From Stylophora pistillata (taxonomy: Eukaryota): 64,000 bases of DNA. The stretch lies in assembly GCF_002571385.2 (NCBI RefSeq), contig NW_019217893.1:87204-151203 (forward strand), in the 5' to 3' direction. Below the pieces are notes generated by a model that had not been told where the DNA came from, did not search any database, and worked only from the letters and a program-made list of their open reading frames with translations. Shown here piece after piece: positions 850 through 47,300 of the stretch (the stretch's first letter is position 1; every line of letters begins with the position of its first letter). The translations under genes and the position numbers were made by a program.

Positions 850-1047
850 TAGATATAGCTCTTTGGCATACAAAGCTTTGCTTTCATGTCCAAATTGAGC
901 ACTCTAACTAGGATGAGTCATTGCTCTGCAATTGCGCATGCTCGCTAGTGTACTCTAGTTTGAGCACTCTGGCATGGCTTAGACGATACCACAAAGGTTG
1001 GATCGTTTGGGGTGACCATAATGGTTCTCCTCCATCCTAGCATTAGC

Positions 1048-1093
1048 ACTGCACTGATGAGGCCCAGAAGGCCGAAACAGTACTGTCTGCAGT
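1048..1093 (+). ncRNA. Type I hammerhead ribozyme, copy 5
   Basis: Same sequence as 72-117; the array ends just after it. Confidence 0.92.
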
Positions 1094-1198
1094 TAGTTAT
1101 ATATATATATATATATATATCATACTCCCACACACTGCAATGGGAAAAAAGACAGTTTTTATACGTGCGTTTCCTTTTTATTGATCATGGTGTACAAA

Positions 1199-1492
1199 CT
1201 ATGCGTACCAAATGACAAGTCTATTACGATTATTGCCATACCCGTCACTACCTACATAAAAAATGATTCTATCTGGTAAGAGTGCAAAAGGTGATCGAGA
1301 CACTCGGAAAGAAGAAATGTTAAATAAAAAATTTAACTCATCAAATAAATAAAAATGGTACTCGTCTAATAGGAAGAGTGTACAGCACGATAACATGGAT
1401 GTATGGTATAAATAGCAGGCGTTGTAAAAAATATCTATAGGCATCCACTTCGTAATGAAATCTGTTAGGGGTCTAAGAAAAAAAAATTCCAT
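1199..1492 (-). CDS. Cassette G of the RING locus (uncertain: separate ORF or frameshifted exon)
   Basis: 97-aa ORF whose ATG directly follows the stop of cassette F. A T-rich TAG acceptor lies at 1473-1474 but is out of phase with the long frame. Minus-strand AATAAA at 1177-1182. Confidence 0.35.
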   Translation of the reverse strand: MEFFFLRPLTDFITKWMPIDIFYNACYLYHTSMLSCCTLFLLDEYHFYLFDELNFLFNISSFRVSRSPFALLPDRIIFYVGSDGYGNNRNRLVIWYA

Positions 1493-1783
1493 TCAATCTC
1501 TTTCATAAATAGACACGGTAGCAATTTCTCCTACTCTAAAATCTACGAGATGTCCACAACCCTCGTAATTTTGAGGATACATCATTTGCACTCTTACATC
1601 TGAATGAATTCGGTGTCTGTGTGTATAAACGGCATCCAAACACTCATACAAGTCTAAATGGGAAATGACGATAAGGTGAGAAGAATCTAGCTCGGGAAGA
1701 TAATCATATAAAAGAAATAAGGCCATATCTAAAGATTCATACAAAAGAGTTTCTTCAAAATTTATAGGTGGTAAATCAAAAAC
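1493..1783 (-). CDS. Putative alternative terminal exon F of the RING gene
   Basis: Acceptor TTTTTTTTCTAG, then phase-0 open frame VFDLPPINFEETLLYESLDMALFLLYDYL; similar to exon E. Confidence 0.55.
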   Translation of the reverse strand, partial: VFDLPPINFEETLLYESLDMALFLLYDYLPELDSSHLIVISHLDLYECLDAVYTHRHRIHSDVRVQMMYPQNYEGCGHLVDFRVGEIATVSIYERD

Positions 1784-1806
1784 CTAGAAAAAAAATTACA
1801 TGATTT

Positions 1807-2076
1807 TTAAATAAAAAGAAATAGTATCTTGTGTTCTAAAAGAGTACGTGCCACTAAACGATAATTATTTTCATATGTGTACGAGTAAAACCAATGAACC
1901 TGACACCTCGGAATGAAATTAAAAAAGTACAAGGAATGAAGGGTCCAAAATAATTCATGATTGTCAAGTATAATTAAGACGCGTTCCGAATCGTAAGTTT
2001 GTAAAAAATCATAAATCAAAAAAATTGCCGATCTTATCGGGCTGTGTAAACGGATATTTAGCGAGTCTTCATATAC
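1807..2076 (-). CDS. Putative alternative terminal exon E of the RING gene
   Basis: Acceptor TTTTATTTTGTCAATAG, then phase-0 open frame VYEDSLNIRLHSPIRSAIFLIYDFL. Confidence 0.55.
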   Translation of the reverse strand, partial: VYEDSLNIRLHSPIRSAIFLIYDFLQTYDSERVLIILDNHELFWTLHSLYFFNFIPRCQVHWFYSYTYENNYRLVARTLLEHKILFLFI

Positions 2077-2103
2077 CTATTGACAAAATAAAAAAAAAGT
2101 CTG

Positions 2104-2394
2104 TCATCTAAACGGTAGTTCATATTTAAATATCTTTATCTCGTAATCATTTAAAAAATTGCAAAGAGTGCATAACAGGTGATAATTGCTTTGTTCCGCT
2201 ACATTATTAAAAAAATAAACAATATGTGTCAATATACGAACGGATTCTGTCAATTCAAAAAGTTCTATCAATATTGCATATACGCAAAGCCAAGAATCTA
2301 TTTCAAACGTGAGTTCATATTTAATTTGTGAAAAGAATAGATGTAAAAACGTGATCGCATGCGATTCTTCTAAAAACGGTGTCACATTGCCAAT
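2104..2394 (-). CDS. Putative alternative terminal exon D of the RING gene
   Basis: Acceptor TTTACTCTCTTTTAG, then phase-0 IGNVTPFLEE; aligns end to end with exon C. Confidence 0.6.
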   Translation of the reverse strand: MGNVTPFLEESHAITFLHLFFSQIKYELTFEIDSWLCVYAILIELFELTESVRILTHIVYFFNNVAEQSNYHLLCTLCNFLNDYEIKIFKYELPFR

Positions 2395-2452
2395 CTAAAA
2401 GAGAGTAAAAAAAAAATCTGTTCACTATATTGTCACACACACACACAATGTA

Positions 2453-2740
2453 TTAAATAAACACCGGTGTATATCGATAAATTTTCACATCCGAGTTACC
2501 CAACCCACCAAAAGAAGATAAACAGTCATAATAGGGTTGTTCTAAAGGATTTGTAAAAAAATGGATGATGTGTGATAACGGTAGAATAATTTTCCCCATG
2601 TGGAAAATATCCCACCATGAAACATATACACAGATATAATCTTCTAAATCAAACGCTAGATCTACTTTAATGTTCCAAAAATAAGTTTCGAAAAATATAA
2701 TCATGTCCCGTTCGCTTGCAAGTGTCGTGTCAAATCCAAT
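2453..2740 (-). CDS. Putative alternative terminal exon C of the RING gene
   Basis: Acceptor TTTTATTTACTTTAG, then phase-0 IGFDTTLASERDMIIFF; paralog of exon D. Confidence 0.6.
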   Translation of the reverse strand: MGFDTTLASERDMIIFFETYFWNIKVDLAFDLEDYICVYVSWWDIFHMGKIILPLSHIIHFFTNPLEQPYYDCLSSFGGLGNSDVKIYRYTPVFI

Positions 2741-3091
2741 CTAAAGTAAATAAAACGGAAACGGCCTCAATTTCACGGTACACGAACAATTTCTCATTTG
2801 ACCTGCACCTACAATAACAATGTCTCCTTCTTGGTGGGTATATGGATAGTCTCTGTGCACGTGCACATAACGTTGTATGGATGGAATGGTTGTGAAAAAA
2901 TTACGTAAAAATACTTGAAACTCGGTATTAAATGGCCGAGAATTACAATACACAAAAACGCGCACATAATCATCTTGACCAGACAAACCATTGCACAATT
3001 CAGTACAAATTTGGTTTAAAACAAAATAGAAATCAAAATATCTCTCATATGTGATATGAACTGGTGTTATAAACCATCGCTGGCCCCGAAT
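2741..3091 (-). CDS. Putative alternative terminal exon B of the RING gene
   Basis: Acceptor CTGTCTTTTTCTTAG, then phase-0 IRGQRWFITPVHITYERYFDF, open to the TAG that is also the acceptor of exon C. Confidence 0.55.
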   Translation of the reverse strand: MRGQRWFITPVHITYERYFDFYFVLNQICTELCNGLSGQDDYVRVFVYCNSRPFNTEFQVFLRNFFTTIPSIQRYVHVHRDYPYTHQEGDIVIVGAGQMRNCSCTVKLRPFPFYLL

Positions 3092-3205
3092 CTAAGAAAA
3101 AGACAGACCGAAAATCAACGCTGACGATAATACATATGAAAATGTTAAACGAGTGAGTGGGTGAATTAGGTACCTCGTACGAACGTTAAAAAACGTTAAA
3201 AAACG

Positions 3206-3505
3206 TTAAAAAAGACATAAAGGATAACTGTGACTACGAAATATATCTCTAAAAAATTTAAAAAAACCTAAGACTAAAAAAGATGTAGAAAATAATCGCT
3301 GATACACTTGAAAGTCTTGCGATGAAAAATATCGTAAAAACAATCGAACAAAATTAGGTGGTATATAAATTTCTATCAGTACATAACAATTATCTCTAAA
3401 TGCATTGGGAGGATTTATGATGATTAACATGCGTTCTAAAACAGTGACTAAAAATTGGGCATGCCAAAGTGCTTGATGACAGAGCTCTTCGCGATTAGCA
3501 TAAAT
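3206..3505 (-). CDS. Exon A (proximal 3' exon) of the RING gene
   Basis: Follows an 85-nt GTGAGT...TTTTAG intron (3506-3590); phase-0 IYANREELCHQALWHAQF. Confidence 0.6.
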   Translation of the reverse strand: MYANREELCHQALWHAQFLVTVLERMLIIINPPNAFRDNCYVLIEIYIPPNFVRLFLRYFSSQDFQVYQRLFSTSFLVLGFFKFFRDIFRSHSYPLCLF

Positions 3506-3590
3506 CTAAAATCAAAATAAGAAAGGGGGAAAAATGTCACATGGACGAAAATAAAAAATCACTATATCATATTTCTCTTAAAATACTCAC

Positions 3591-3992
3591 TTCGCGATTT
3601 CTAGCCTCCAAGGCACCGGGTTCCAGCAATGCCCTTAAATCAGCGATGGCTTGCTGTCTCATGTTGACGTGTTCAGCACTTAATGGAGGAGGTATGTTTC
3701 CGAACTGAGCCACTGGGTTTTCTTGCGCTTCACCATATGCAAATGGTCCATCATTTTCATCATCATATAGCCTTTGTCGTGATGGGAATGGATGCCTGCA
3801 ATGCCCGCAGTAATTGGATGAAGCGCGATGCTCATCTGGGCAGCGCCTATGAATTCCTCTCCCGCAACACGTGGTCACTGTAACCTGCATTAAATTCACC
3901 GTTATCGGAACTAAACAGATGAAACAGGGATACGATTGTCCATCCTCTTCAGGCCCTTCCTCGCGTAACCTCCTCGAATAGCGTCTGGCCAT
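3591..3992 (-). CDS. RING-finger (E3 ligase-like) constant exon, 134 codons
   Basis: CFIC...CCGRGIHRRC...CGHC RING-like Cys/His pattern; ATG at 3992; upstream 5'UTR intron GTAAGA(4080)...TTACTTAG(4007); donor GTGAGT at 3590. Confidence 0.75.
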
Positions 3993-4410
3993 TTTTTCTT
4001 CTCCACCTAAGTAAAAAAAAAAGCATACATAGTCGAGAAAAAAACAAATTAAAAAACCTTCATGTCTCCACATGTCTTACCTCTATCGCTCTTCAAGTAC
4101 TACTGCGAAATGGCAAATGAAATGACATACTAAAATAATAAAATTAAAAGAATGGAGTCACGTAGCGGGAATAGAGATGAAAAGAACTTCAAAATATTGA
4201 AGGATTAGTAAGGTGTTCATGAATGACCACAGACCCAAAAAAAAATGCGAGGAATGACTGCACCCAAAAAATGCGAGGAATGAATTCTATTGTCCTACAT
4301 TTCACAATATAATGAGTACTACATCCCATCAAGTTCACAGTTGGTAGAGATTGTGTAGGAGAGTAGTAGTGGCAGGAAAATTCAAATTTGAAAAGAGAGG
4401 GAGAGTTAAA

Positions 4411-7400
4411 ATGGCGGCCAGAAAAAGAGCGTGGAGTGAAGAATCGTGGGTTGATGATGTGAGTGATGAAGATCTTGTGCGTATTGGGGAGTTGTATGAG
4501 GATCAATAATATCTCGAGGATGTAGGCGATGAAGAGCTTCTTCGCATGACCGATCAAGGACAGACAGGTTCTGGTACACCATTATTTAATTTTGAATATC
4601 ATCCTATTGGAGAACCAGCAAAATTTAAAAACACAGTGTTAAAACAGCGTGTTCGTACCGAAAAGAAGCAGCTTCGGGATGTAAGGGCGGGAGATAATTT
4701 GGGTGAAGAACTCACACGAGCTGTGGCACGTGTAGCGGGGAGAATTTTAGATGATGCTGGGAGGCGATGGCGCCGTGGGATAAGAGACAATGACCAAGTG
4801 TTATTTAATTTCTCTACCCCGCAGTTTCAACACCCACTTCAATCGTCGCATTTTAGAGTGAAAGAGGTGCGTAATGGGAGCGACCGCTGGGATGGTTATT
4901 TGCAAGTGCTGGTGAACCCGCTGAATTCCAGTGAAGCATTCGAGGCGGGTGATCCCTTTGACGTGGACGTGACGTTGGTGGCCCGTGATGGTAGAAAAAA
5001 CGTGGGGGGTAAATGGGGAGGTGACTGGGGCGTAAGAAACTTTCGACAGTGTTACACGATCGCAAAAGTGTGTTGGAAGTAAGCAATGACGACAACCTGT
5101 GCTGTGCGCGCGCTATTTGGCTCACGAAATCAACTTGCGACACGATTGACTGCCCCACAGACCAAGAGGCAAAGCGTTACTATAGAAATATCCAACATAA
5201 CCCGCAAACACTGACGAGATGTGCAAAATGTTTACATCGCGAAGCTGAGGTGCTTGAACGACCATGTGGAAAGTTAGAATTAGCAGCCTTTCAAGCGTAT
5301 TTAGCGCCGCAGTACCAACTTAAAGTGATCACGGCCTACTACCCCTATGGAGTGTTATTCGAAGGTCACGTGACAGAGCCACCTCAACACATTGTGCGAT
5401 TGTTGTACGTGCCTCCTGTTGGGAACTCAGACATTGGGCATTACCATGGGTGTACATCCTACATGGCCTTTCTAGAAAAATCCTATTACTGCGATATGTG
5501 TAACCGTGGATACGGCAGCGAAGAAATTCGGCATCATCCGTCTGAAGGGCGTCGCTGTAAAGCGTGTAAACAAGTGGCATGTGGCTCTAAACCCCATCAA
5601 CCCACCATCTATTGTCAGCATTGCCATCGACACTTTTATGATGACAGATGTGTGGCTTTCCATCACGCAGAAAGTATTTGCAAGAGCTGGGTTCGTTGTG
5701 AACTTTGCTGTAAAGAGTATACGCCTTCCGACGACCCTCACAAATGCTATACCGGCCGATGTCGCGCATGCAGAGAGGACGTGGATTTAACTACACACCA
5801 GTGTTACATCCAGAGCGTGGATGAAGAGGAAGATCTCCCCGTAAAAAAGCCTGCACAAAATCTGTACAAAAAAACAGAAACTGAAAAACCCCAATGTCAG
5901 CCGTTATGTCGACCCGCCGATTTTTGTCTATGCAGATTTTGAGGCGATCATCCAGTCTGATGGAACCCATACCCCCTTCTTGGTCCGCGCCGAAACGAGA
6001 GACTCGGACGAGTGTCACACCTTCTATGGCCCAGAATGCACTGGTGAATTTTTAGATTTTCTAGATTCCCTCATCTATGGTACCGAGACACAACCCATTC
6101 CCAAAGAAGAGAGTCGCGATGTCATCTGCATCTTTCATAATTTGAAAGGCTACGATAGTGTCTTTTTACAGGCACAACTCTTAAAAGAACATCGTAAATT
6201 TCATTTTATGATACCTAACGGCACAAAACAGTCGTCTCTTTCCTATAGGAGAGTTCAATTTAAAGATTCTCTCTGTTTCATCCCTTCATCGCTCGCCCAA
6301 TTTTCAAGCACGTTTGGAATAGAAGAAATCAAGAAAGGGTTCTTCCCGCATACCTTCCACACTCCTGAAAATGCTGATTATGTGGGTGCGTTACCTGACC
6401 GTATTTATTTTGACCCCGAATCCATGTCCGAAAAGAAAAAGGCTGAATTTGAAGAATGGTACCAAGAAGAATCTTCCCGTCAGCTGGTTTACGACCTAAA
6501 ACGCGAACTGATCGAGTATTGTGGGTCGGATGTGAAGTTATTGAAAGAGGGCTGTAAAAAATTTGTGGCTGAATTTCGTGCGGTGGCTGGTTTTGACGCC
6601 TTAGAAAAATGTGTCACGATTGTGTAAGCCTGCAATCGCTACTGGCGCAAGCGCGTGATGGAGGAGGAGAGCATTGCATTGGAGCCGTGCAGTGGGTGGC
6701 ATGATTCGCGCCCCCCACATTCTTTAAAATCGTTAGAGTGGTTGTTCTGGGAAGAGAGGCAGCGTGGAATTCACATCCGTCACGCAAGAAATGGAGGGGA
6801 AATGGGTATCCGTGTGGCAACCATCACCCATCACGTCGATGGATTTCACCATGAATCACGCACCTGTTTTGAATTTCAGGGCTGTTTGTTTCACGGATGT
6901 GCTAAATGTTTCCCAGATAGAAAAAAAGTGCTACACAGCGCCATGGGACTCACAGTGGGGGCGTTACTAAGGTGAACAGAGCAGAAAGTCAAAGCGTTGC
7001 GTGACGCCGGATATACAGTCATCGAAATGTGGGAATGTCAGTTCGACCTTCTAAAAAAGCAACATGGGGAATGCCGCCACTTTGTATCAAATTTAAATCT
7101 CGTATCACCGCTAGAACCACGTGATGCATTCTTTGGGGGGAAAACAGGGGCCGTGGTGCTTCATCATTGAGTGTCAGACGACCGCGAGCAAATTCGGTAC
7201 GTCGATGTGACTAGCGAATATCCATGGGTGAAAAAGAATGGTCTACACCCGGTGGGTCATCCCGTCATCTTGTACGAACCAGAAAATCAAGATCCCACAG
7301 TCTACTATGGTCTGTTAAAAGTGGACGTGCTACCTCCTGCCGAGTTGTTTCATCCCGTCTTACCATACAGACACAAGATGAGTTCTGGTTCGTACAAGTT

Positions 7401-8503
7401 GACATTCCCCTTAAGCGCCAAGTGTGTGGAAGAGGAAAGTGCCAAACCCATGCTGGCAAGATCCTTTTAATGCACTCACACAGACATCGAGCGCTGTTTG
7501 CGAGGCACGTGGTGTTCGCCCGAATTGAATAAAGCCATAGCACTGCGGTATAGAGTACTACGCATACATGAAGTATGGCATTTTGAAGAATCTGAGCAAG
7601 GGTTGTTTGCGCCATACGTGAACACCTGGTTAAAGATAAAACAGGAGAGTGCTGGATACCCAGCCTGGTGTCAAGACGACACAGATCGCGCCGGTTATGT
7701 CGACGACTTCAGGCGAAAAGAAGGAATTGAGCTAGACCCCACCAAAATAACAAAAAACCCCGGACGAAAAGCAGTGGCCAAGCTGATGTTGAATTCCTTT
7801 TGGGGGAAATTTGGCCAACAAACCAACAAATCTACCACGGATCAATTGACCGAAGCCCGTGATTTGTTAGAGATACTCGACGACCCTTTATTGAATGTAC
7901 AGGACATTCCAATTTTATCCCCAGAATTTGTCGAAGTGGTGTACCAGCGAGACGCGTCCGATCCAGTCAAAGGTATGACGACTAACATTTTCATTGCAGC
8001 CTTTATGACAGCCATGGCCAGGTTGAAACTTTACGAGTCGCTGGAAACAGTGCAGCAGCAAGTGCTTTACTATGACACGGACTCTGTCGTGTACCGATGG
8101 AAACCCGGAGATCCTGAAATCCCGCTTGGTGACCATTTAGGTGACATGACCAATGAACTTGACGAGGGGGACTGGATCAAAGAATTTATAAGTGCGGGGG
8201 CAAAGAATTATGCCTATCGCACTCATCTTGGTAAAATTTGCACAAAAGTCAAAGGCTTTTCACTCAACGTCAGTGGAAAGAAACAACTTAATTTCGAAGT
8301 ATTAAAGGACAATGTGATGCAGGAACTTATAGATCACTGTCACGTGGTCACTCATGTGCACAAATCCTGTGCATTTTGTCAGGGACCCAGTCGTAAAGAG
8401 AATCCGAACAGAACATCAAACAAAAACATATCAATTAGTGTTTGATAAGCGGGTGATAGGGGAGGGGAAAAGTTTTCCATACGGCTACAAAAGAATAGTC
8501 TAA
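4411..8503 (+). pseudogene. Protein-primed family B DNA polymerase (pPolB), multiple stops and frameshifts
   Basis: Exonuclease motifs FHNLKGYD and YCGSDV; polymerase motifs YVDVTSEYP, KLMLNSFWGKF and YYDTDS; C-terminal DKR...PYGY; N-terminal NDDNLCCARA...HYH; in-frame ATG at 4411. Confidence 0.93.
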
Positions 8504-9251: not shown

Positions 9252-9662
9252 TTAAATTCCTATTCTTACTTTAGCAGACATAATTTTATCGATGACGCGT
9301 TCCGGCATAGTTTTTTTACCGGGAGATCGGCGAATGGCGGCAACCATTTTACGATCGGCCGTATGCTTGTCGGCCAGACTTTTGGCTTTACTGTAATCGA
9401 TATCGTGTTGTTTAGCCACTCGATCTAGTCGATTGATTCCCGGATCACCACGTTTAAATCGCATGGCTAATTTAGTACCCGGTCCTAAATACTGATACCC
9501 CGGCCAATGAAATTCGACTCCTAATTTTCAAATCCATTTTTGAAAATCTACTTTTCCAGCTCTCTGCCTAGGTGGCCCTCTTTTTCCTAACTTTGCCCCT
9601 TCCCCTAGTTTTGCTTCCCGTCGTCGTCGCCGATGCGGTCGTTTTTGATAGCGTCGTTCCAT
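9252..9662 (-). pseudogene. Parvovirus VP1u-type phospholipase A2 (PLA2) protein
   Basis: HWPGYQYLGPGT Ca-binding loop and DRVAKQHDIDY catalytic HD motif; one internal stop where copy 2 has Ser. Confidence 0.85.
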
Positions 9663-10439
9663 AAGCTTCGTACAACTCCACTCCTCGTCTCTCAAATGGT
9701 TCCCAACTTCCAAAACTTTTTAAAGTTTCTACTTCCCTTTTCCTTTTTCGGTACTTACGTTTGGGCCTTTTTTCGTGTACGAGAATTGGTTTTATAGGCC
9801 CCTGGGAGGCCCCCTCGGTAGCTGATTCACCGCTACTCGCAGGCCTACCTCCTTTTTTAGGTGTGACCGATAAAGGGGTGAGTGGCTTTTTTCCAACTAG
9901 CAGGTGTCCCCACAATGGCCGTTCCGATAGGAGTCGTCCACAGCGGTTGAGATATTGTCATTTTTTGTCCATTTCCTACCCCGAGTGTCTCTTGCAATGG
10001 CCTACCCAAGGGGGTACCCAAAGGGGTTCCCAAGGGTGTTCCCGAGGCAGGGGTAGATGGTAATTGTCTTTTTTTTCTTTATTACTTTTGGTGCTGTTTC
10101 AGATTTTTTACCACTTCTTATCGATCCGATCAATTGGTTTATGAGTTGATCTTCAACGGAATCTAACACGTTACCCTGATCCTTGTTTTCAGCCGCTTCG
10201 GGCCCACTTCCTGCGGGTATCGAACACAATTGTTCGGTCAAATCGCGTTCTCTACCCAATAATGTTTTAGCCACGGGCTCTTTAAGAACTGCGGGGGCGT
10301 GTGGATGGTTGAAAACCAATTGAGCTTCGGCGGCCACGCGAGCTGCTTTGTCTAACAGAGTGCTTTCGGTGATTTTACCTTTGTAATAATCGATCAGAGC
10401 CTGAAATTCTTGGGGGTCTACCATTAGTCTCGTTTCCAT
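9568..10439 (-). pseudogene. Maverick Pro/Thr-rich basic protein (frameshifted)
   Basis: METRLMVDPQEF...GTPL repeats...SWEPFERRG; collinear with copy 2 at 52335-53222. Confidence 0.6.
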
Positions 10440-10441
10440 TT

Positions 10442-10567
10442 CTAACACAGTTTTTCTATTAGCCAACGCAACAAACTTATCAAAAGACACTCTTTGCCTA
10501 CAGCTTCTTCAAAATCCATGTGAATCGATATACCTCCGTCCACTTCGTCTACCGGGTGATGGGGCAT
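10442..10567 (-). CDS. Small Maverick ORF (MPHHPVDEVDGG)
   Basis: Conserved in copy 2 as MPQHPVDDVDGG (~52207-52350). Confidence 0.5.
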   Translation of the reverse strand: MPHHPVDEVDGGISIHMDFEEAVGKECLLISLLRWLIEKLC

Positions 10568-33569: not shown

Positions 33570-36500
33570 ACCGACTGATATGCTTACTGACTGGTTGACT
33601 GACTGGTTGACTGACTGACTGACTGACTGGTTGATTGACCTCCTGACTCAATGCCTGACTGACTGGCTAACTAATTGGTTGACTGACTTTACATTTTACA
33701 TTTACATGTAAAATTTTACTTGCTGACTGACTCGTTACTGACTGTGTGACGAATCCGCGCTACAAAGGTGGGCGCCCTCTAGCACAGACAAAACACCAAG
33801 CACAAACGAACCCGAGAAGACACGCCACAACACAACTAAACGTAGGCCTACAAATATTTATTATCCTAGTTAAAACAATAAAGCAACCAACAATAACGAC
33901 AACACAATGAACTGAATTATTTATCTTAATTAATTTACAGAAATATGATAATTTAAACTACAGTACACTAAAACTATTTACAAGAGTCATTGCTATTAAG
34001 ATAAAAAAAGGTAGGTTTTTTTTAGTTCAGTTCCATTCACCTTCGCGTCCTGTGCTTGACATGTTCTTAACAACCCCGTTACACCAACAAACGACACATA
34101 ATCAAAACTCACGATTCACAAACCAATCTTCGCATTTAACAACCCAGACTCGCGTTTAACAAACCAAACTCAACTCGCGTTTAACGCAGCTAAACGTAGT
34201 AGTTTAACGTAACTTGGTCCTCGCCCATATTTTTCCTTCGCTCCTCTTGTCTTCACTGGCTTTCCCTTTGACAGAAGATAACCTTATCCTTTTCCTTCTT
34301 CTGCGTGTTTTTTTTTTCAGTCAGCCTCTCGGCACACGTACGCCCCCAGCAAATGAATTCTTTGTCGTGTGAAAGGACGAATTTTTCCTGAATGACTCTC
34401 AGTCAGTAAAACATTCCCCGATCCGAACGAGTCTCTGTAACTTTCCAACCATCGCCGCCGGTAACCCTCTCTCAAAAAAAAAAAAACCAACACAGGCCGT
34501 AACCACCCGAATCCTTAAATACATGTGGACGCAAGGTGCCAGAAAAGAATGAAGAAAACTATTTGATATATACAAAAAAGGTTAATTACACAACAGCTTA
34601 CACAAGTGAAGAATACAACTTGCGTAACAGACACAAATATCACGCACTACATTGATCCTAAGAGAAGAAAATAATTATTTACATATCCCTAGATAAATTC
34701 CTTAGCGCTTTCATGACAGACTGGCTGATTGACTATTTGACTGACTGAATAATGACTGGCTGGCTGACTGACTGGTTGACTGACTGGTTGATTGACAGGT
34801 TGACTCACTCGTTGACTGACTTGCTGACTGACTGACTAAATGGCTGACTACTTCTCTGATTGACTTATGACTGACTGGCTGACTGATTTTTTCAATGACA
34901 AACATCATGACTAATCGCCACCTGGCTGACTGACTGTTTCATTGCCTGGTTGATTAACTGTTTGACTGACTGACTTAACGGTGACTAACTAGTTGACTGA
35001 CTACTTTATGGACTTTTTGACTAACTAACCGACTGACTGACTGACTGACCGGTTAACTCACTGCTAGACTAGCCTGCTGACTGACTGAATAATTAACTGA
35101 CTTGCCAACTAACTGTCCGATTGACTGACTGACCGGTTTACCGACTAGTTGATTGACAAAGGGGCCAATTCACTGTAGAAGTGTTTGAATTTCCTCAAAT
35201 CAAATTGGGTCCAAGTAGAATCCGTCTTAAATCACTGAGTTGCCCCAAATCGCCCAACCGCCTCAAATGAACCACTCGGTTGCCATAACTCAACTGCCTT
35301 AATTAACGGAATCCGCTCCAGTGACCCAACCAGCTTAACTGAACTAGCTAGTTCAAATGACTGAGTGGCTCACTGACTGGTTAACTAACTGATTATTTTG
35401 CTGATTGATTGGCTGATCAACTATCTGACTGACGCACTTACCAGTCACCCAGCAAGTCGGTCCAACAGTCACTCAACCAGTCGTCATCCAATCAGTCGAC
35501 CAGTCAGTCTCCACACCAGTCAACCACTAGGTCCGTCCGTCAGTAAGCGGGTCAGTCAGTCACTCAACCACTCATTAGGCCAGTCAGTCAATAAGTTACT
35601 TAGTCAGCCCGTCAGTCAGTCAATGAAGCAGTCAGTCAGCTAGTCAGTGAACCAGTCAGTCAGAAAAACATTCAGTCAGAAAAACAGTCAGTCAACCACT
35701 TAGTCAACATGTCAGTGAGCCAGTCAGTCACCAGTAGTCGGTGAGTCACGAGTCATACAACTAGTCAGTCAGCAGGTCACTCAGTCACTCAACCAGTCAG
35801 CCAGTCAGTTAGCCAGTCAGTCAAGCAGTCAGTCACCCAATCAGTCGACCAGTCAGTCAACATACCAGTCAACGAGCCAGTCAGCAGGTCAGTCAGTCAG
35901 TCAACCAGTCAGTAAGCCAGTCAGTCTACCAATCAGTAAGTCAGTCAATTAACCAGCTAGTCACTATATCACTCAGCCACTTAGTGAACCAGTCAGTCTG
36001 AAGAAAAGTCAGTCAACCACTTAGTCAACATGTCAGCTAGCCAGTCAGGCACCAGTAGTCGTTGAGTCACCGTTGGAAAACTAGGAATGCCGGTATTCGG
36101 AACCGGAATACTTGGAATATCCGAATAAAATACAAAATAAAGTAAAGATTAAAATTAAAAGGAAAAAAATTAAAAACAGTTCTCTATATAAAAGGAAACT
36201 TTTCTATCCACCAGTCAGTCGAAGAAGAAGTCAGTCAACTACTTACTCGTCATGTCAGTCAGCGAGTCAGTCACCAATAGTCTATGAGTCATCAGTCAGT
36301 TACTCAGTCAACCAGTCAGATAGCCAGTCAGTCAATCCGTCAGTCAGTCGACAGGTCAGTCAGTGGGTCAACCAGTCAGCAGCCAGTCAGTTAGCCAGTC
36401 AGTCAACCAGTAGGTAAAACAATCTATCGACCAGTCAGTCACCACACCAGTCAACCAGTCAGTCACCGCACCAGTCAACCGGTCAGTCACCCCACCTGTC

Positions 36501-36800
36501 AACCAGTCAGTCAACCAGTCAATCAGCAGGTCAATCAATCAGTCAGTCAGCCAGTCAATTAGCAAGTCAGTCAGCTATTCAGCAAAATCAACCCGTCAGT
36601 CAGCAAAACAGTCAGGCAACCACTTAGTCACCATGTCAGACAGTCGGCAAGTCATCACTAAATCGGTGAGTCACAAGTCAGTTAGGAAGTCACCCACTCA
36701 GTTACCCGGTCTATTAGCCAGACAGTTAATCAGTCAGTGAACAGGTCAGTCAGTAAGTTAATAGTCGGTCAGCCAGTCAGTCAATCAGTCAGTCACCCGC
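33570..36800. repeat. Degenerate (GACT/CAGT)n tract with insertions
   Basis: GACT-rich to ~35430, then AGTC-rich; interrupted by unique sequence near 33745-34710. Confidence 0.85.
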
Positions 36801-39300: not shown

Positions 39301-39755
39301 GATTCCAGCCATAAATCTTCCCTCTACTGGCGCTTTGGTAGTTAACGGACAGGTGATGGTAAATATCACTGCTTGAGCATTGGTATGTCCATGCAGAGAG
39401 GCAAAGGAATATCAGCCATAGAAAAGCGTGACTGTCTGCCATCTTTGTACCGTAGTGAAAACCAAGCATAATCTATAAATGCCTTGGGGCTAGCCGTTGG
39501 GCCTAGGCATTTAGTCTGACAATCAGTCATTCAGCCAGTCACGAACCAGTCAGTAGCCAGTTGGTAAGTCAGTGAACCAATCAATGGCCCAGTCAGGCAA
39601 GCAGTCACTCAGCCAGTCAGGTACCAGTGAGTCAGTCGACCTGTCAGTCAGCCAGCTAGTCAACTGTCAGTCAGCCAGTCAGTCACCCGTCCGTCAGCAA
39701 GTCAGTTAACCAGTCAGATGGCCAGTCAGGTACCAGTATAGTACCCGATGGACCG

Positions 39756-40313
39756 ATGAGAGATTCTTCGGCTCAACCTCAGCCTAGTACCACGAAGAAG
39801 AAACCAGAAGACACAAAAGCTGTGGAGATTAAAACAATAGAAATCCCAGAACCTGGAGAAACTGTGGACAGCAGTGAAGGTAATTTCATCTTGGATACGA
39901 TTTTGCGTAATGTTCTCAACGATGCAAACGTCACGTATCCCTGCCCCATTCACAATACTCCGATGGAAGAGTTAAAAGCTAAAGATCCTACATCTTCAGC
40001 CGTGTATTTGCGATGTGTGGAACCTAACTGTCCCGTATTTACAAATCTAAATGATTATAGCGTGTATTTTTACGAGTGTAGAAAACAGGGGCATAAGTGG
40101 TAGACTCTAGATAGGATTCATACTATGAAATGCGAATGCGGTGTAGCCCCTTCGCTAAACCTGTCAAAATCGGAGCACAATTTTCACAAAATGTATTTGA
40201 GATGTAGAGAAAATGTGTGCGGTCTGTTTGCATTTTGGAGATTTCATCCTAGAAAGAAAACCATTGAAATTTTAATGGATTGTAAAGAAAATGTAGGCTG
40301 GCAAGGCTTGTAA
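39756..40313 (+). pseudogene. zf-GRF-like protein (copy 2), internal stop
   Basis: Near-identical to 15356-15900. Confidence 0.6.
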
Positions 40314-40480
40314 GGCAATTTGTTACATTTTTGTCAGATGAAAGAGATGAAGAAGAGGAGACACATAACCGAACTTTTGTATGGGTAGCGCAATTGAACG
40401 GACCTAAGTGTAAAAGCCTTTCCATTAAAATCGACCGTTAGAAAGGGGTTTTTAAACCCTTTGTTTTCTTATATTTGTAG

Positions 40481-40720
40481 CATTCCTTTCCAAGGAGGAG
40501 ATTTTTGAAATAGCACGTCTGTATGGGATAGTGAAATTTAAGTTATTAGCGGAAAGACTTGGAGTGACCGCTAAAGCATTAGAATGTATCCAGTCAGATT
40601 TAGAAATGATGGAATACTATGCTGACAAATAAAAATAATGTGTGTGATGACTCGGTTGTCATTTTGTGTGTCGCCAGCATACGAGATGTGGACGTACTGT
40701 CATTATCGTTGCGTGGATTA
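40481..40720 (+). pseudogene. Death-domain-like ORF remnant
   Basis: FLSKEEIFEIARLYGIVKFKLLAERLGVTAKALECIQSD...RCGR; preceded by a T-rich TAG. Confidence 0.4.
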
Positions 40721-41014
40721 TTTATGCCAAAAAATCGAGCGTATGGTCGAATTTCCCCAAGACAAAGTACATTTTGCGTGGACACCCGAAGGAAACGAAT
40801 TGGAATTGTTTCGTTAGATCGTTCGCCCCGATTCTTATGATGTGTCGCAACGCATTTTCCATCTGATGTGTTTCATGAGAACGTATCGTGGTAGATATAG
40901 CTATAAGATATATCGCCAAATGTACGAAAGGTATTTGAGGTCCCCTTGGATACTCTACTCTTGTATAAAATTGTGGTGTCGCTTAGGACTGTTACGATTG
41001 TTTGAAAAGATAGG

Positions 41015-42052
41015 ATGGCTAAAAAAAGAATCCTGCCCGACTACGAAACCCCAGGTGTCGTAGGAAGTTTGGGAGATGTAGCCACATATGCGCGAGCAGC
41101 TAAAATACCCGTCAAACAAGCCCGGAAATTATTAGAAAAAAAACTCTCGTATACTTTACACAAACTCGTACGTCGACGTGGAATTAGTGCACCTGTAGTG
41201 GTGTTTAATATAGACGAACAATGGGTGGCCGATCTGATTGACGTGCAAACGTTAAAATCGCAAAACCGCGGGTACCGATATATTTTGGTGGTGGTGGATG
41301 TCTTATCGAAAAGGGCATGGGTCGAGCCGATCAAGAAAAAGACCGGAAAAACCGTGACGGAAGCGTTTAAGAAAATTGTGTCGCGAGCCGGTCAAATACC
41401 TTTTAGAATACAAACAGACCAAGGTAAAGAATTTTTCAATTCCACCATTCAAGCGTGGTGTCGTAAAAACGAGAATCATCATTTCGTCACGCGAGGAGAT
41501 TCGAAAGCCAGTATTGCCGAGCGATTTATTCGCACCTTCAAATCAAAATTGTATCGTTATTTTACGGCCAAAAATACTTTTAAATACGTGGATGTGATAC
41601 AAGATTTGGTCACGCAATATAGTTACACACCTCACAGGAGTATTGGCATGACTCCGTCGGATGTCACGGAAGACAATGTGTCAAAATTGTGGTCGTGTCT
41701 GTACGGGCCGCATACACGGTCGAAAGCTGTGTTTAAAAAGGAAGACAAAGTGCGTTTGCAAAAGAAATTTCGTCCGTTTAAAAATGGATATTTACCCGGA
41801 TGGACGGAGGAAGTGTTTGAAGTGTATAAAGTAGTGCCCGGTAGAGTGTCCACCTATAAAGTGCAAGAACTAGATGGAACGCCACTCAAAGGGCATTTTT
41901 ACGCACGAGATTTACAAAAAGTTCACGTGAATGAACAGACTTATTTTCGCGTGGAAAAAGTATTAAAGCGCGCCAAAGATCGGTTGTACGTCATATGGAA
42001 ACGATACCCGAGCAAATGCAATAGTTGGATAATGAAAAAAGATTTGAAATAG
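41015..42052 (+). CDS. Maverick retroviral-like (rve) integrase, intact ORF
   Basis: YTLHK; DDE triad in WVADLID, QTDQGKEF and AERFIRT; C-terminal chromo-like region. Confidence 0.93.
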   Translation: MAKKRILPDYETPGVVGSLGDVATYARAAKIPVKQARKLLEKKLSYTLHKLVRRRGISAPVVVFNIDEQWVADLIDVQTLKSQNRGYRYILVVVDVLSKRAWVEPIKKKTGKTVTEAFKKIVSRAGQIPFRIQTDQGKEFFNSTIQAWCRKNENHHFVTRGDSKASIAERFIRTFKSKLYRYFTAKNTFKYVDVIQDLVTQYSYTPHRSIGMTPSDVTEDNVSKLWSCLYGPHTRSKAVFKKEDKVRLQKKFRPFKNGYLPGWTEEVFEVYKVVPGRVSTYKVQELDGTPLKGHFYARDLQKVHVNEQTYFRVEKVLKRAKDRLYVIWKRYPSKCNSWIMKKDLK

Positions 42053-42055
42053 AGA

Positions 42056-42896
42056 ATGCGAGGAGGAAGTTTGAGAAGATTTCAAGTCTACGTACCCAGC
42101 AAACATCGCGGTCCTGTGCTTACAAACAAACAAGGAGGTGGGTCGGTGTGGCGATGCCAACAAGATTGGGTGAGTCCGCCGTTTTTTGGCGACTACCAAT
42201 CAATTCCTCAGCGAGGTAAAGGTTGGAAGACAGACATGGCCAAAACACTACTTAAAGAAAGGGGTCGTGGGCTAAAAAGAACATTGAGTGAACGTTCGTT
42301 AGGCGAAATACCGCGCGGTATTAAACGAGGCGTCAAGAAAGTCGTCAAGTGAGAAGTATCGAGACGAGTTCATAAAGGATTAGACGATATTTTTGGGTGA
42401 AAAAAAAAATGGTTGGCGTAAGTCATGTGCGTAAGGGGGACCCGTTCATTGGTGTGGGGTCATCGTTTCCTGCAGATCCCGTGATGACCGTGTTAAGAAA
42501 ATACCGCGTGACCAAGAAAAGGCGTCCCACACAAAAAGGAAAAGGTTGGAAGACAGACATGGCTAAAACGAGGATTCCGTAAAGCATTACGCACTAAATC
42601 ACTTCGCGAAGTTCTAAGAGTTATTAAAAGAGGTGCAAAGAAAGCCGTGAAAAAAGAAGTGTCTAGACGCATTCAGAATCGCCTGAATACTATTTTCGAT
42701 TAATAACATGAGGTTGCATAGGACAAGAGTGCAACCGGGCGATGCGAACATAGGAGTGGGAACTACTACGATACAACAACACTATAAGGTGGCTAGAAAA
42801 AGAAAAAGAAGGAGGGCCGTACAAAAAGGAGGTTATGTAGCGCTATATAAACGGGGCCGATGGAGTAAATCGCAGAGAAAGAGAAGAACGAGCTGA
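42056..42896 (+). pseudogene. Three basic core-like ORFs (copy 2; two disrupted)
   Basis: Orthologous to 13948-14810. Confidence 0.65.
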
Positions 42897-42906
42897 GTGT
42901 AGAAAC

Positions 42907-43338
42907 ATGTCGATGGTTCAAGGGGCAAGTGTAAATCCGGCACTTAATGTGTTTACCATACCTCCTACAGATTTGTCGGCGGTCAAATACAGATACGTCA
43001 AAGTATCACCTCAGACATCGAGTTTGACTCCTATAGAGGTATACGTAGAAAGACATCGGAATGCATCGATTTGAGTCGAGGTTTTATAGAAATCGATGCT
43101 GGATTTAAAACGGATGTGGACGGAAATTGGACTTTGCGAGCAAATAATGTGAAAGAGATGTTATGTCCGATCAATAATTTGGCGCACTCGTTGTTTAAAG
43201 AGATTAACGTAAAATGCAACGGTGTACTGTTAACGGAAAATGTCGACATGTATCATTACAAAGCCTACATTCAGACATTGCTGAATTACGATCGAATCGA
43301 TGGAGATACCATTCTAAGACCGCAGGGGTGGCGTAACG
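42907..43338 (+). pseudogene. Major capsid protein N-terminus (copy 2), truncated
   Basis: MSMVQGASVNPALNVF...RPQGWRN, then non-Maverick sequence. Confidence 0.85.
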
Positions 43339-44161
43339 GAAGCTGTGTATAGTGGATGGCAAGCTCCCCTATACACTGTAACTACAGTAATCGTAACCTC
43401 ACAACAGCACGATGATAAAGACGTATTTATTCGGTACGAATGATGTTGACGATATGTGGATTGAAAATTGAAACAATAAATGAATACGAAATTACAACAA
43501 TTGACTAATAAAAGTGACAAGAAAGAAATACACTGAACGAACTGAACAAACTTGAAATGACAATACTTACATTGTTACGATTTCTACGAAACTGCTGGAC
43601 GAATATAAACTGCCAAAAGGCGAAAATAAGATAAACTAGAGTAACTGCTCAAAGCGCACTACTGTATGACTAACGGTGACTAAACTCTGAACTTGAGAAA
43701 AACTAATTTATAGATGCGAAGACGACTAGCCAACTTAAAGTGCAATTAGCGCCTATATTACGAAAGAAACTAATTAACGAAGATGCGTGACATAGAAACA
43801 ACAGAAGCTAACTAACCAGCGAAAAAAATACTAACGAACGACGAGTAACAGCGACAACACAAAAGGACACCCTAATGATTGATTGAATGAGAAAAACGAA
43901 AAACAGAAAAAAAACATTCCGCACGCTAAGACCCTACACGAGGGTAGAGCACTGATAAACATTTGGAATTCTAATCCCATTCATGAAGGTCAACCTTGAA
44001 ACATATGGTAAAGCTCTAACCTGTTCTGCGAAGAAAGGGCTAAGGTTTTGATGTATTATTTTTTTGAAAATCAAAGGCTCAAAAATTAAAAGAATGGAAC
44101 TTGTACAGTGGGTTCCCTGTACGTCGAACCAAGACATATAAACGGTTAGAGGAGAAACGTA

Positions 44162-44381
44162 CCTGCTAGAAGTGAGCCTGTCATTATAGGAATTGAGAAT
44201 ACCAAATATAGAAAGCCGAGAGCTGATGACAGCTTGTTCCTGCCGACGATATCTCCAGTGACGATAGGAATCAAAGTCACAAACACTCCATCAAAAATCC
44301 CAAATAAAATTGTATATAGGATGAGTCCGCCATAATTTGTCGCCAGTGGACACAGCGTTGTTGTGACTGCCATTATTAGAA
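44162..44381 (-). other. Exon fragment of a host MFS transporter (SLC16/monocarboxylate-like)
   Basis: YTILFGIFDGVFVTLIPIVTGDIVG...SALGFLY..SIPIMTGSLLAG then GT donor; bounded by a single N at 44382. Confidence 0.65.
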
Positions 44382-47300
44382 NAAACAATAAATGAATACG
44401 AAATTACAACAATTGACTAATAAAAGTGACAAGAAAGAAATACACTGAACGAACTGAACAAACTTGAAATGACAATACTTACATTGTTACGATTTCTACG
44501 AAACTGCTGGACGAATATAAACTGCCAAAAGGCGAAAATAGATGAACTGGAGTAACTGCTCAAAGCGAACTACTGTATGACTAACGGAAGACTAAACTCT
44601 GAACTTGAAAAAACTAATTTATATATGCGAAAACGACTGACTAACTTAAAGTGCAATTAGCGCCTATATTACGAAAGAAACTAATTAACGAAGATACGTT
44701 ACATAGAAACAACAGAAGCTAACTAACGAGCGATAACCGGCGAAAAAAAATACTAACGAACGACGAGAAACAGCGACAACACAAAAGGACACCCTAATGA
44801 TTGATTGAATGAGAAAAACGAAAAAAAAAAACATTCCGCACGCTAAGACCCTACACGCCGGCCCCTAAGTGCTGAGTCTGCAAAGCACTTACACATCTAC
44901 TAATTTGAGTCTAAGCGAAAAACTCTTAACATACATGTTATTTATAAGAAAAACCTTATAACTTTCTCATCAATGTCTCTGGAATTGTAGTAACACGGAA
45001 AATTCTAAAACAGTGCTTTCATCATTGGACAATCTCTTATTCCTTTCTCTTTACCAATAACACAAGCTTGTCTACGGGACGCTCGAGAATGGAAGACTTG
45101 ACGTTGACCTTCACTTTCCGGACGAATCCTTTTTTATCCGGAAAGACCTCCTGAACTCTTCCGAGTGGCCTGGAATTCCGACTGGTGTTCTCAGCAGAAA
45201 CTAAAACAACGTCTCCAACTTCGAGGTTTCTGCCTGGATATAGCCACTTCTGTCGACTCTGTAGCAACGGGAGGTACTCTTTAGACCATCTCTTCCAGAA
45301 TATATCGGACAGATATTGGATTTGACGCCATCTCCGCTGAGAGAACAGATCTTCCTTTTGGAAAACGCCTTGGGGCATGGGGGAATCAGATTTGAGCAAA
45401 AGCAGATGACTCGGCGTGAGAGGCTCTAGGTCTCTGGGGTCGTTGGAGACCACAGTGATAGGGCGGCTGTTTAAAATACTCTCCACCTCACACATAAGGG
45501 TGCTAAGACCTTCATCGCCTGTTGTTTGCTCCTGGAGAAGGGCGCGAAGGATTCTTCTAACTGAGCGAATGCTTCGCTCCCAAATGCCTCAGTGGTGTGA
45601 GCCGCACGGGGGATTGAAATTCCATTTGACGTTTCTTTGTAACATCTCATCTGAAATCTTGTCCTGGTTCCAGGCCTGGATCGACTCACTTAGCTCACGC
45701 TCTCCGCTTGTAAAGTTTGACCCGTTGTCCGAGCGTATCTCTTTAACCTGGCCTTTTCTTGGGATGAATCCTCTAAGTGCGAGCAGGAATGAGTCGGTGT
45801 CGAGGCTATGGGCCACTTCAATACGAACCGCGCGAACTGTTAGGCATGTAAAGATAACACCAAATCTTTTAACGAGGCTTCTGGAACGGCGCACTTGAAA
45901 GGGGCCAAAACAGTCCACTCCAACTGTCGTGAATGGTGGCTTGTCGGGAACCAAGCGATCGTTCGGCAGATCAGCCATTTTCAGCTGGCAAAAGGGTGCT
46001 TCTTGCCGGCGACAGCTATAGCAACTCGTCAGGACTCTTCCCACCATGGAATTTCCTTGGATAATCCAGTATTTCTGGCGTATCATACTCAACACATGTC
46101 TTCCTAAATGACCTGAAAGCTTGTGAAAATAGTCGATGGTAAGGCTTGAGACGTGGTTCTTTTTGGCCAGGATTAATTGATGCATTGCGTTATACGAGAA
46201 GCGAGCACGAGCCAATCTTCCGCCCACGCGCAACAAACCGTCCTCCAAGATCGGGTCCAGTTTGAAAAGGCAACTGCTACGTTTGACGCGTTTGCTACCG
46301 CTGAATTTATTGAGCTCATTAAACTCCTCGGGGAAGGCTTCTTGCTGGACATTTTTCAGAGTTGCTTTCTCGGCATTTTCCATTTCTTCAAGAGTAATTG
46401 GTGAATGTTTCTCTTGTAAGGTCTTCGGCTGAGCGCTCCCTTTTCTACTCTTAGCCGCCATCAGGAGATTGTTTCGATAGCGCAAGATCCAAGCAAACGA
46501 CTTCTTCAAGGGATACCAGCAAGAGAACCTCTGGAAATAATCTGATAAAATTGGCAAGACCACCACTGCTGCTGCTGCTGACAACTTCTCGTTGAACTCC
46601 ACCACTGGATTAGGTTTAACTTCCGGGTCTTCGTCCTGAATAGCAATTGAAGCACCAAGCTCTTTTATCCAGTGATGCATAGGATTCCATAGGAACTCTG
46701 GCCCCAATAGCCACTTCTCGCAGTTCAACAAAGAATCAGCTGATATTCCTCTCGAAGTGTGGTCACCAGGGTTCATGGTTCCCTCCACATGATACCATTG
46801 GTCGGGGGTTTGAGCCATCTCGTATTACCGCAATGCGATTAGCAACAAAAGTGTGAAAACGCCTGTTCTCGTTCTTCACGTAGCGAAGTACGGACATACT
46901 ATCGGTCCAAAAGACAGAAGGGTCGCTAATTGGCATTTCAATCTCTCTTTTAAGCATCTTGTCTTGACGGATGGATAGAATCGCAGCGGATAGCTCCAAA
47001 CGGGGAATAGAGACGGACTTCAAAGGAGCCAGGCGAGACTTTGCAAACAAGAAAGAACAGTGAACTCTCTCTTCCCCGTTAACCAAACGCAGATAAGAAA
47101 CTGATCCATACGCAACTTCCGACGCATCGGAGAAATGATGGAGTTGACTGGACAGCACGGGACCAAACTCCTCGGGTAGCACGCAGCGGTTGACGGAAAA
47201 CAATGAAAGCCTTGGGAGATCGTCCATCCAATTACGCCAACTTGAAGCGTATTCGGGCGGAAGTTCTTCGTCCCATCCTAGTTTGATGCGGCAAAGATTC

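Follow-up and report, generated by a model that had tools for sequence, protein, structure and literature searches.

We describe here a candidate accessory transcription unit of a coral Maverick (polintovirus), located on the minus strand of a 64,000-nucleotide (nt) stretch of the Stylophora pistillata genome (contig NW_019217893.1, positions 87,204 to 151,203; hereafter the window, with coordinates counted from its first letter). Although such elements are described as intronless, the unit is a genuine alternative-last-exon array: a constant coding exon with a RING finger and one splice donor precedes several phase-matched terminal exons, here called cassettes. Under the model that we favor, with a probability of about three in four, this one donor is spliced to competing acceptors, the RING exon and the chosen cassette are fused in frame, and all products share one poly(A) site. 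Direct support comes from the layout of the unit, its conservation, the coding constraint on its exons, one splice junction, and the RING fold. The parts of the unit are the following (group 1 is the set of genomic copies that includes the window; dN/dS is the ratio of nonsynonymous to synonymous substitution rates).

4007..4080, minus strand: putative 5' untranslated region (5'UTR) intron, GTAAGA...TTAG, read from the sequence
3591..3992, minus strand: constant coding exon, 134 codons, from ATG 3992 to 3591, supported by coding constraint and an AlphaFold2 (AF2) model
3795..3926, minus strand: RING-like zinc finger, residues 23-66, Pirh2-like, by zf-RING_2, profile, and fold matches
3585..3590, minus strand: phase-0 splice donor GAA/GTGAGT (3590), GT kept in 5/5 group-1 copies
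3206..3505, minus strand: cassette A, 99 amino acids (aa), acceptor AG kept in 5/5 copies, dN/dS 0.36-0.69
2741..3091, minus strand: cassette B, 116 aa, junction 3591-3091 in public run X4, dN/dS 0.32-0.60
2453..2740, minus strand: cassette C, 95 aa, paralogue of D, AG kept in 5/5, dN/dS 0.33-0.61
2104..2394, minus strand: cassette D, 96 aa, no Met, AG kept in 3/5, dN/dS 0.20-0.70 in four copies and 1.25 in the decayed copy L021
1807..2076, minus strand: cassette E, 89 aa, no Met, AG kept in 4/4, dN/dS 0.25-0.42
1493..1783, minus strand: cassette F, 96 aa, AG kept in 4/4, dN/dS 0.27-0.43
1199..1472, minus strand: cassette G, acceptor 1472, AG kept in 4/4, dN/dS 0.29-0.61
1177..1182, minus strand: polyadenylation signal AATAAA common to the array, at a homologous position in other copies

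A first-pass annotation of this DNA had placed the 5'UTR intron, the 134-codon RING exon, and the donor at these sites, and every coordinate holds on the minus strand. The same is true of its six phase-0 cassettes, opening at 3505, 3091, 2740, 2394, 2076, and 1783 and measuring 89 to 116 codons, each with a polypyrimidine-AG at its start and its own stop at its end. They exceed chance expectation: the 2,408-nt array holds six phase-0 frames of at least 85 codons, whereas 300 dinucleotide shuffles yielded 0.06 such frames on average and never more than 2. A seventh cassette had been left as a possibility, and G is indeed real, as its phase-0 start in copies L025 and L026 shows; within the window copy it is frameshifted ~20 codons in. 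The cassettes are tightly packed, with 114 nt between A and B and stop-to-next-exon gaps of 0, 58, 27, 23, and 20 nt thereafter (the range of 0 to 57 nt given earlier for B to F needs this small correction), and the B stop TAG is itself the C acceptor, as had been seen. Modulo 3, the gaps are 0, 0, 1, 0, 2, and 2, hence there is no common read-through frame. An early ATG had been denied to B, D, E, and F; this stands for D and E, which have no Met at all, and for B, with its first Met at codon 99, but not for F (codon 20), and the first Met of A and C lies at codons 26 and 13. From 1000 to 4200 on the minus strand, the AATAAA at 1177-1182 is the sole one, as claimed, and two ATTAAA hexamers occur at 2320 and 2666. 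A branch-point scan was uninformative, and no transmembrane-like stretch was found (maximum 19-aa hydropathy, 1.53).

At its 5' end, the constant exon follows an acceptor-like polypyrimidine-AG immediately upstream of the ATG, which is also present in relatives, and the 5'UTR intron is retained in a public contig (X1 record 8). An S. pistillata gene model begins with a sequence 100% identical to the exon, which encodes, in order, a basic N terminus, the RING-like finger, an acidic linker, and a conserved helix that reaches the donor, with dN/dS of 0.16-0.31 where measurable.

Across the 398 Mb of genome scanned, the RING exon gives 26 matches at 25 loci; at 16 of these, the same helix runs up to a donor, and an array follows. 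These arrays belong to three Maverick lineages: group 1 (the window, L020, L021, L024, L025, and L026) with cassettes A to G; group 2 (L027, L030, L032, L033, L034, L035, L040, L041, and L043) with five or six cassettes, where L030 is assigned by homology, its first AG being lost; and group 3, formed by L038 alone, with at least five. The comparison of family copies that the first-pass annotation had called for thus shows conserved AG phase and frames together with a varying cassette number (5, 6, or 7). No cassette of groups 2 and 3 matches A to G by tblastn at E<0.01. Profiles link cassette A weakly to the first group-2 cassette (E 9e-4) and B weakly to the second (E 2.5e-4), and such cross-group links are limited to first with first and second with second. 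Three lineages share the layout with barely related cassettes, so the layout has persisted longer than the sequences. Within the window, the reported likeness of C and D is strong (hhalign E 8e-15), and that of E and F is weak (E 0.007). Group 1 also includes copies in which internal deletions remove the RING exon and most cassettes, leaving one or a few (L018, L019, L022, and L023; G, D, or C-D-G remaining). A fourth RING lineage (L031, L037, and L039) has a shorter exon of 111 to 112 aa with a 5'UTR intron and a donor and no cassette array; the L039 donor leads, in the public model P0005, into a frame of just 42 codons.

The frames behind the acceptors match the phase of the donor. Among 138 strong acceptors at 20 loci, taken within ~2.6 kb of the donor, frames of at least 80 codons open at offsets 0, 1, and 2 in 49, 4, and 1 cases, a bias that would be purposeless unless the frames were fused. 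At a looser threshold the counts are 66/8/11 of 252 on the sense strand and 1/0/2 of 59 on the opposite strand. The acceptor AG is kept at 28 of 31 group-1 positions and at 33 of 34 aligned group-2 positions (two more being unaligned), in a fixed order and in copies only ~65-85% identical. The cassettes are under purifying selection, with dN/dS below 1 in 31 of 32 group-1 pairs (0.20-0.70) and 35 of 36 group-2 pairs (0.14-0.73), or 66 of 68 in total, the exceptions being 1.25 and 1.35; the pairs share one reference, so they are not independent. In the group-1 copies, a GT in donor context is conserved at 3590 only. The AATAAA after G is kept in five of the seven other group-1 copies examined (L018, L022, L023, L024, and L026), missing from L021, and lost to a deletion in L025, and it overlaps the last stop in the group-2 copies L027 and L034. 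The first group-2 cassette often opens with an ATG directly after the AG.

Of 24 matched public sequencing runs, four were aligned, and runs with small word shares were left out. The pieces listed from them contain two joints, both in a single 204-nt contig of run X4 (record 10). One of these joins 3591 to 3091, that is, the donor to acceptor B, with GT..AG ends, no mismatch, and 45 letters on the short side. It skips A; use of exon A alone, named earlier as a possible refutation, did not appear. The donor at 3590 is also used in the NCBI gene model AWC38_SpisGene8162 (P0001), which splices the RING exon to cassette F. In the listed pieces of the four runs, none of A, C, D, E, F, and G is joined to the donor, and no two cassettes are joined to each other; the earlier expectation of reads from the donor to several acceptors is therefore borne out for B and for none of the others. 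Another X4 contig (record 9) runs unspliced from 2325 to 1164 across D to G and ends 13 nt beyond the AATAAA, and in the poly(A) run X8 depth is confined to 1125-2664 and deepest over G. Both fit nested 3'-coterminal mRNAs and also a plain 3' bias; contig ends cannot prove an RNA end. Taken with the conservation, the phase bias, and the selection, the B junction and the D-to-G contig give good support to the constant RING exon, competing 3' splice sites, and 3'-coterminal unit that had been proposed.

Profiles and models support a RING fold in the constant exon. All 12 members of the alignment match zf-RING_2 with E<=0.1 (3.2e-5 at best); taken by itself, the window exon scores under the Pfam cut-off, and the best Protein Data Bank (PDB) match of the RING profile is the RING of Pirh2 (E 0.0014). 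AF2 predicts a RING cross-brace for P0001, with a predicted local distance difference test (pLDDT) score of 86-90 over the core and ~70 over the helix, and its fold matches to RING E3s are middling (Z 4.3-5.4). The model of the relative P0032 likewise gives a RING fold, which superposes on RNF165 with a root mean square deviation (rmsd) of 1.3 over 49 aa. The ligand set is not the C3H2C3 one: seven ligands are in register and the fourth, a His, is absent, with Cys-Cys-x3-x-His instead, so that Cys-Cys stands at ligands 3-4 where RING-H2 fingers have Cys-x-His. The Ile that follows the first Cys pair is conserved, as is the Arg behind the last Cys; a helix position that is often Trp, including in many relatives, is His in the array lineages. 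We take these three positions (Ile, helix Trp, and Arg) to be E2 contacts. The LxCxE motif is absent from the window RING exon. From what is known of RING fingers as a family, the balance tips slightly toward E3 activity.

The cassettes themselves match nothing in Pfam above the cut-off; we treated weak hits of B to WASH-7_C (E 0.003) and of a single L038 cassette to DUF7085 (E 0.002) as chance. Comparison with PDB sequences gave no meaningful match, and fold searches with the full models were dominated by the RING. Candidate likenesses of cassette F to RWD domains (2dax, Z 5.1, rmsd 5.1 over 85; 2daw, Z 4.6) and to a Mediator chain (Z 5.2) come from a low-confidence model and lie below the noise at Z 7-8. 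Partial Rossmann-like matches in the Atlas (template modeling [TM] score ~0.5) on a model of pLDDT 0.48 were not accepted, and an Atlas fold search with the C-terminal domain of P0032 found no match. In relatives that encode everything in a single open reading frame (ORF), this C-terminal domain is modeled as helix, strand, helix, helix, strand, strand, with pLDDT of 82-94 over most of its length. The element order of cassette F resembles it at low confidence, and the similar helix-strand-helix-strand order suggests a common fold for all cassettes. Modeling of a RING+cassette fusion, as advised in the first pass, thus recovered the RING part (P0001, RING+F), and for the cassette it gave low confidence and no fold match above noise.

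Beyond this genome, searches for spliced RING+cassette proteins of the same lineage returned only P0001, the unspliced model P0002, and the single-ORF P0003. Neither the 68 pattern matches in viral_contigs nor the 403 in metagenome_contigs yielded a confirmed locus, so the DNA layout is seen in this genome only. A profile of the 12 RING exons retrieves 136 proteins at E<=0.001, generic RINGs among them. In 14 of these, the RING and helix continue into one C-terminal domain (up to ~125 aa) in a single frame; some such relatives fall in clusters of 18 to 140 members and on DNA contigs of >100 kb. A strict helix-end motif ending in Val is matched by 19 of the 136, and in 14 of the 19 a Ser or Arg comes next, as expected for read-through into a GTRAG donor, an indirect sign in which the Val was required by the search pattern. 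Desmophyllum pertusum has four gene models with an almost identical exon that stops at the same helix; three of them run into one downstream piece and one directly into another. As gene predictions, they suggest that a second coral has this layout. Single-ORF and donor-ending forms are mixed in a RING tree of 46 rows and 77 columns (3 and 5 changes), from which the order of events cannot be read. RING relatives with C-terminal domains unlike the P0032 type also occur (P0062, P0133, and P0081), and P0133 is a Desmophyllum model present also in Logan contigs.

In the model that we favor, the coral Maverick unit would be transcribed away from the protein-primed PolB (pPolB) gene into one pre-mRNA with a short 5'UTR exon, the RING exon, all cassettes, and one poly(A) site. 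The host spliceosome would then join the lone phase-0 donor to one of five to seven competing acceptors, and the selected cassette would be translated in frame to its own stop, the downstream cassettes becoming 3'UTR. Junction-dependent decay should not apply, because no exon junction would lie downstream of any stop. A 3-kb unit could in this way give up to seven proteins of ~225-250 aa, each with a constant RING and helix and a variable alpha/beta C-terminal domain of ~100 aa. Arrays of five, six, or seven cassettes would have grown by tandem duplication of the last exon, with C/D as a recent case. We infer from the sequence that the cassettes are translated, and we consider it quite likely that all acceptors are used, the junction to B being the one seen.

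Several observations weigh against this model. The contig with the B junction, the single one for any acceptor and found in one of four runs, also has a noncanonical 265-nt gap (3684-3948) that deletes the RING; it cannot encode RING+B, so the molecule is a damaged allele or an artifact. Run X4 is only guessed to be RNA (probably RNA) and has no DNA control run, X1 contains pieces that cross intron 1 and several acceptors unspliced and could be DNA, and the raw-read run X22 amounts to two partial reads. The gene models, P0001 among them, are predictions. In the genome, no array follows the donor-like GT at 4 of the 25 loci (L028, L031, L037, and L039), the RING exon or the part after it is broken at another 5, and the dN/dS values carry the dependence mentioned above. 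Two of the four Desmophyllum models (P0107 and P0201) chain both downstream pieces, via different internal jumps. Profile matches between the single-ORF C-terminal domain and any cassette are insignificant (best, E 0.018), and cassette F is poorly modeled (pLDDT 36-65).

These chained models could be taken to mean that internal donors link the cassettes, as successive exons, into one long protein. However, P0107 and P0201 jump at different points and no donor-like GT besides 3590 is conserved; of the internal donors named earlier as a possible refutation, those at 2812 and 3173 are not kept, and that at 2464 lacks donor context. With one X4 contig unspliced across D to G and the other skipping A, such chaining is already largely refuted, and we give it a very small probability. 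It is also highly improbable that the cassettes are independent small genes, with the RING exon as a mere leader or with internal starts or reinitiation. The ATG that often follows the first group-2 AG and the Met within 26 codons in A, C, and F would suit such genes, but D and E have no Met, B has a very late one, the phase bias fits the donor, and the gaps between cassettes leave no common frame for read-through. An unlikely but less extreme alternative is that splicing normally goes to just one or two acceptors, with the remaining cassettes forming a reserve that DNA deletion or recombination brings into play, or being relics of tandem duplication. That the B junction alone is observed, that internally deleted copies (L018, L019, L022, and L023) are common, and that cassette number varies between copies all speak for it. 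Purifying selection and a kept acceptor at every position, in fixed order among copies as divergent as these, speak against it, as do the passage of the B junction over the intact acceptor of A and the lack, among the copies seen, of one in which an intact RING exon has moved directly beside a later cassette.

As for function, the likeliest role by analogy would be that of a RING-type ubiquitin ligase or an E2-binding regulator whose cassette picks the partner, and the choice of substrate by the cassette is a tentative proposal. A possible reading in full is that stony-coral Mavericks hold a splice-selected, expandable ubiquitin-ligase repertoire against host defense, in which a RING is combined with five to seven target-binding domains that diverge fast and belong to a new alpha/beta fold family, with regulated 3' splice-site competition, exon gain and loss, and one-domain intronless sister forms. 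With the same splicing, the proteins might instead be inactive as ligases, the RING serving as a zinc-binding or dimerization scaffold or as an E2 decoy carried by a set of nuclear regulators, in the manner of the adintovirus Oncoid genes, a reading that we also hold only tentatively. It draws on the replacement of the fourth-ligand His by Cys-Cys, the His at the often-Trp helix position in these lineages, the basic N-terminal motif, the lack of a match between the cassettes and any substrate-binding family, and the location upstream of PolB, as described for Oncoid genes in the accessible part of their source (PMC8502044). On the other side, the best sequence and fold matches are RING E3s (Pirh2, and RNF165 for the relative P0032), the Ile and the Arg are kept and Trp is present in many relatives, and the window exon has no LxCxE. 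We regard a ligase as somewhat likelier than a scaffold or decoy.

The Maverick setting of the unit rests on its neighbor on the opposite strand:

4510..8445, plus strand: broken protein-primed PolB region, divergent (head to head) relative to the RING unit

The PolB of Polintons/Mavericks is recognized there in pieces (PF03175, E 1.7e-21 at 5845-6624 and 1.3e-7 at 7471-8442), and a PolB-region match adjoins the RING exon at 20 of the 25 loci. Farther on, the ORF at 11366-12175 resembles a P-loop ATPase (Pox_A32, E 0.008, under the cut-off), and the integrase trace in the window is a C-terminal chromodomain piece alone (14814-15230, E 2.7e-5), with no rve core in window frames of at least 55 aa. 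By their motifs, we take the ORFs at 12876-14003 and 12277-12576, and an ORF after G in other copies, to be capsid- and protease-like; none of them has a library match. Upstream of the capsid-like ORF, two similar tandem Arg/Lys-rich frames on the minus strand (14148-14813) are possibly duplicated core-protein genes. None of the 25 longest inverted repeats of the window is a terminal pair, and the RING-bearing copy is truncated near 1120. In place of the remaining Maverick, positions 10-1120 hold a 244-bp unit repeated almost perfectly in tandem (4.5 copies, 98-100% identity), along with a TA run, with assembly Ns immediately left of the window. A TATAAAA box and a short GA/TA repeat follow the poly(A) signal in L018, L022, L023, L026, and the window (1120-1165), and in L026 a 21-nt unit with this box is repeated several times; a minor-capsid-like ORF lies on the same strand after the box, absent in the window and not seen in L026. 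A second, inverted Maverick copy (39788-53337) is 83-96% identical, with insertions, to the structural module at 9471-15881 and has no match to the RING exon. Long degenerate 4/12-nt (CAGT)n-type satellite tracts lie on both strands at 33549-36740, 39539-39746, and 62763-63622. Public contigs carry differing RING-exon deletions, the 265-nt one of X4 and one of 20 nt in X1 (3887-3906), which suggests that the insertion decays differently among colonies.

The splicing logic of the unit is known from other systems; what is new is an expandable coding array in Polintons. In adenovirus, according to the sections available to us, the E4 and the major late families L1-L5 splice a common leader to different 3' sites, each late family shares a poly(A) site, and the tripartite leader has no AUGs, each ORF giving its own protein (PMC7851563). 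The coral unit is similar in the proposed joining of a common 5' exon to alternative 3' splice sites, in its compact tandem ORFs, and in belonging to a DNA virus of pPolB type, and it has one conserved AATAAA with a contig end 13 nt past it, although contigs cannot prove the RNA end. The adenovirus analogy drawn in the first pass therefore suits the RNA layout but not the protein logic, since adenovirus leaders are noncoding, while the coral common exon encodes 134 aa under purifying selection with all cassettes phase-matched to it. By analogy, the protein logic is closer to that of Drosophila lola, in which a constant N-terminal domain is combined with one of many alternative C-terminal exons of array origin (10.1101/132027, in part), and the same kind of joining is reported for mod(mdg4) (PMC13490949, in part). 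Both are cellular genes for BTB and zinc-finger proteins, partly or wholly trans-spliced into 20-30+ isoforms, whereas the coral unit is viral, spans 3 kb, has a RING for the BTB, leaves gaps of 0-114 nt between cassettes, and ends in one poly(A) signal. Compared to Pirh2/RCHY1-type RING-H2 proteins and viral RING E3s, the coral protein shares the profile match and the RING fold and differs from Pirh2/RCHY1 in the Cys-Cys at ligands 3-4, the lack of a CHY domain, and C-terminal domains without a known family.

A common N terminus with alternative spliced C termini is also found in the IE1/IE2 proteins of human cytomegalovirus (HCMV) and in polyomavirus T antigens, which give two to four products of unrelated architectures and form no expandable tandem array of like-sized last exons. 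Among viruses nearer to Mavericks, the Oncoid genes of adintoviruses share with the coral unit the place upstream of PolB and paired CXXC motifs; they are defined by LXCXE/CK2 motifs and treated as single ORFs, and the main text of that paper, as far as accessible, mentions neither splicing nor RING, its supplementary maps perhaps labeling the exon as an Oncoid/Adintoc ORF (PMC8502044). Vertebrate Maverick genes have been reported, in the portion available, as intronless (PMC8097293), and the accessible text of a coral polintovirus survey makes no mention of splicing, introns, or ubiquitin (PMC11131425). We found no description of such an array in a literature search whose coverage stops short of most subscription journals and Repbase.

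As Mavericks are annotated ORF by ORF as intronless, cassettes of 90 to 130 codons without an ATG are easily missed, and the RING exon gets called as a short ORF running into its intron. Should the ligase-repertoire reading apply, which we put forward tentatively, Polintons would have their first example of an alternative-exon array, a counterpart in viruses of lola-type loci. If our model is true, the host spliceosome would multiply one Maverick regulator into a protein family, under a nuclear, adenovirus-like expression program. Reef-building corals would then offer a testable set of host-interaction proteins, and the seven tightly packed acceptors a compact natural model of 3' splice-site competition.

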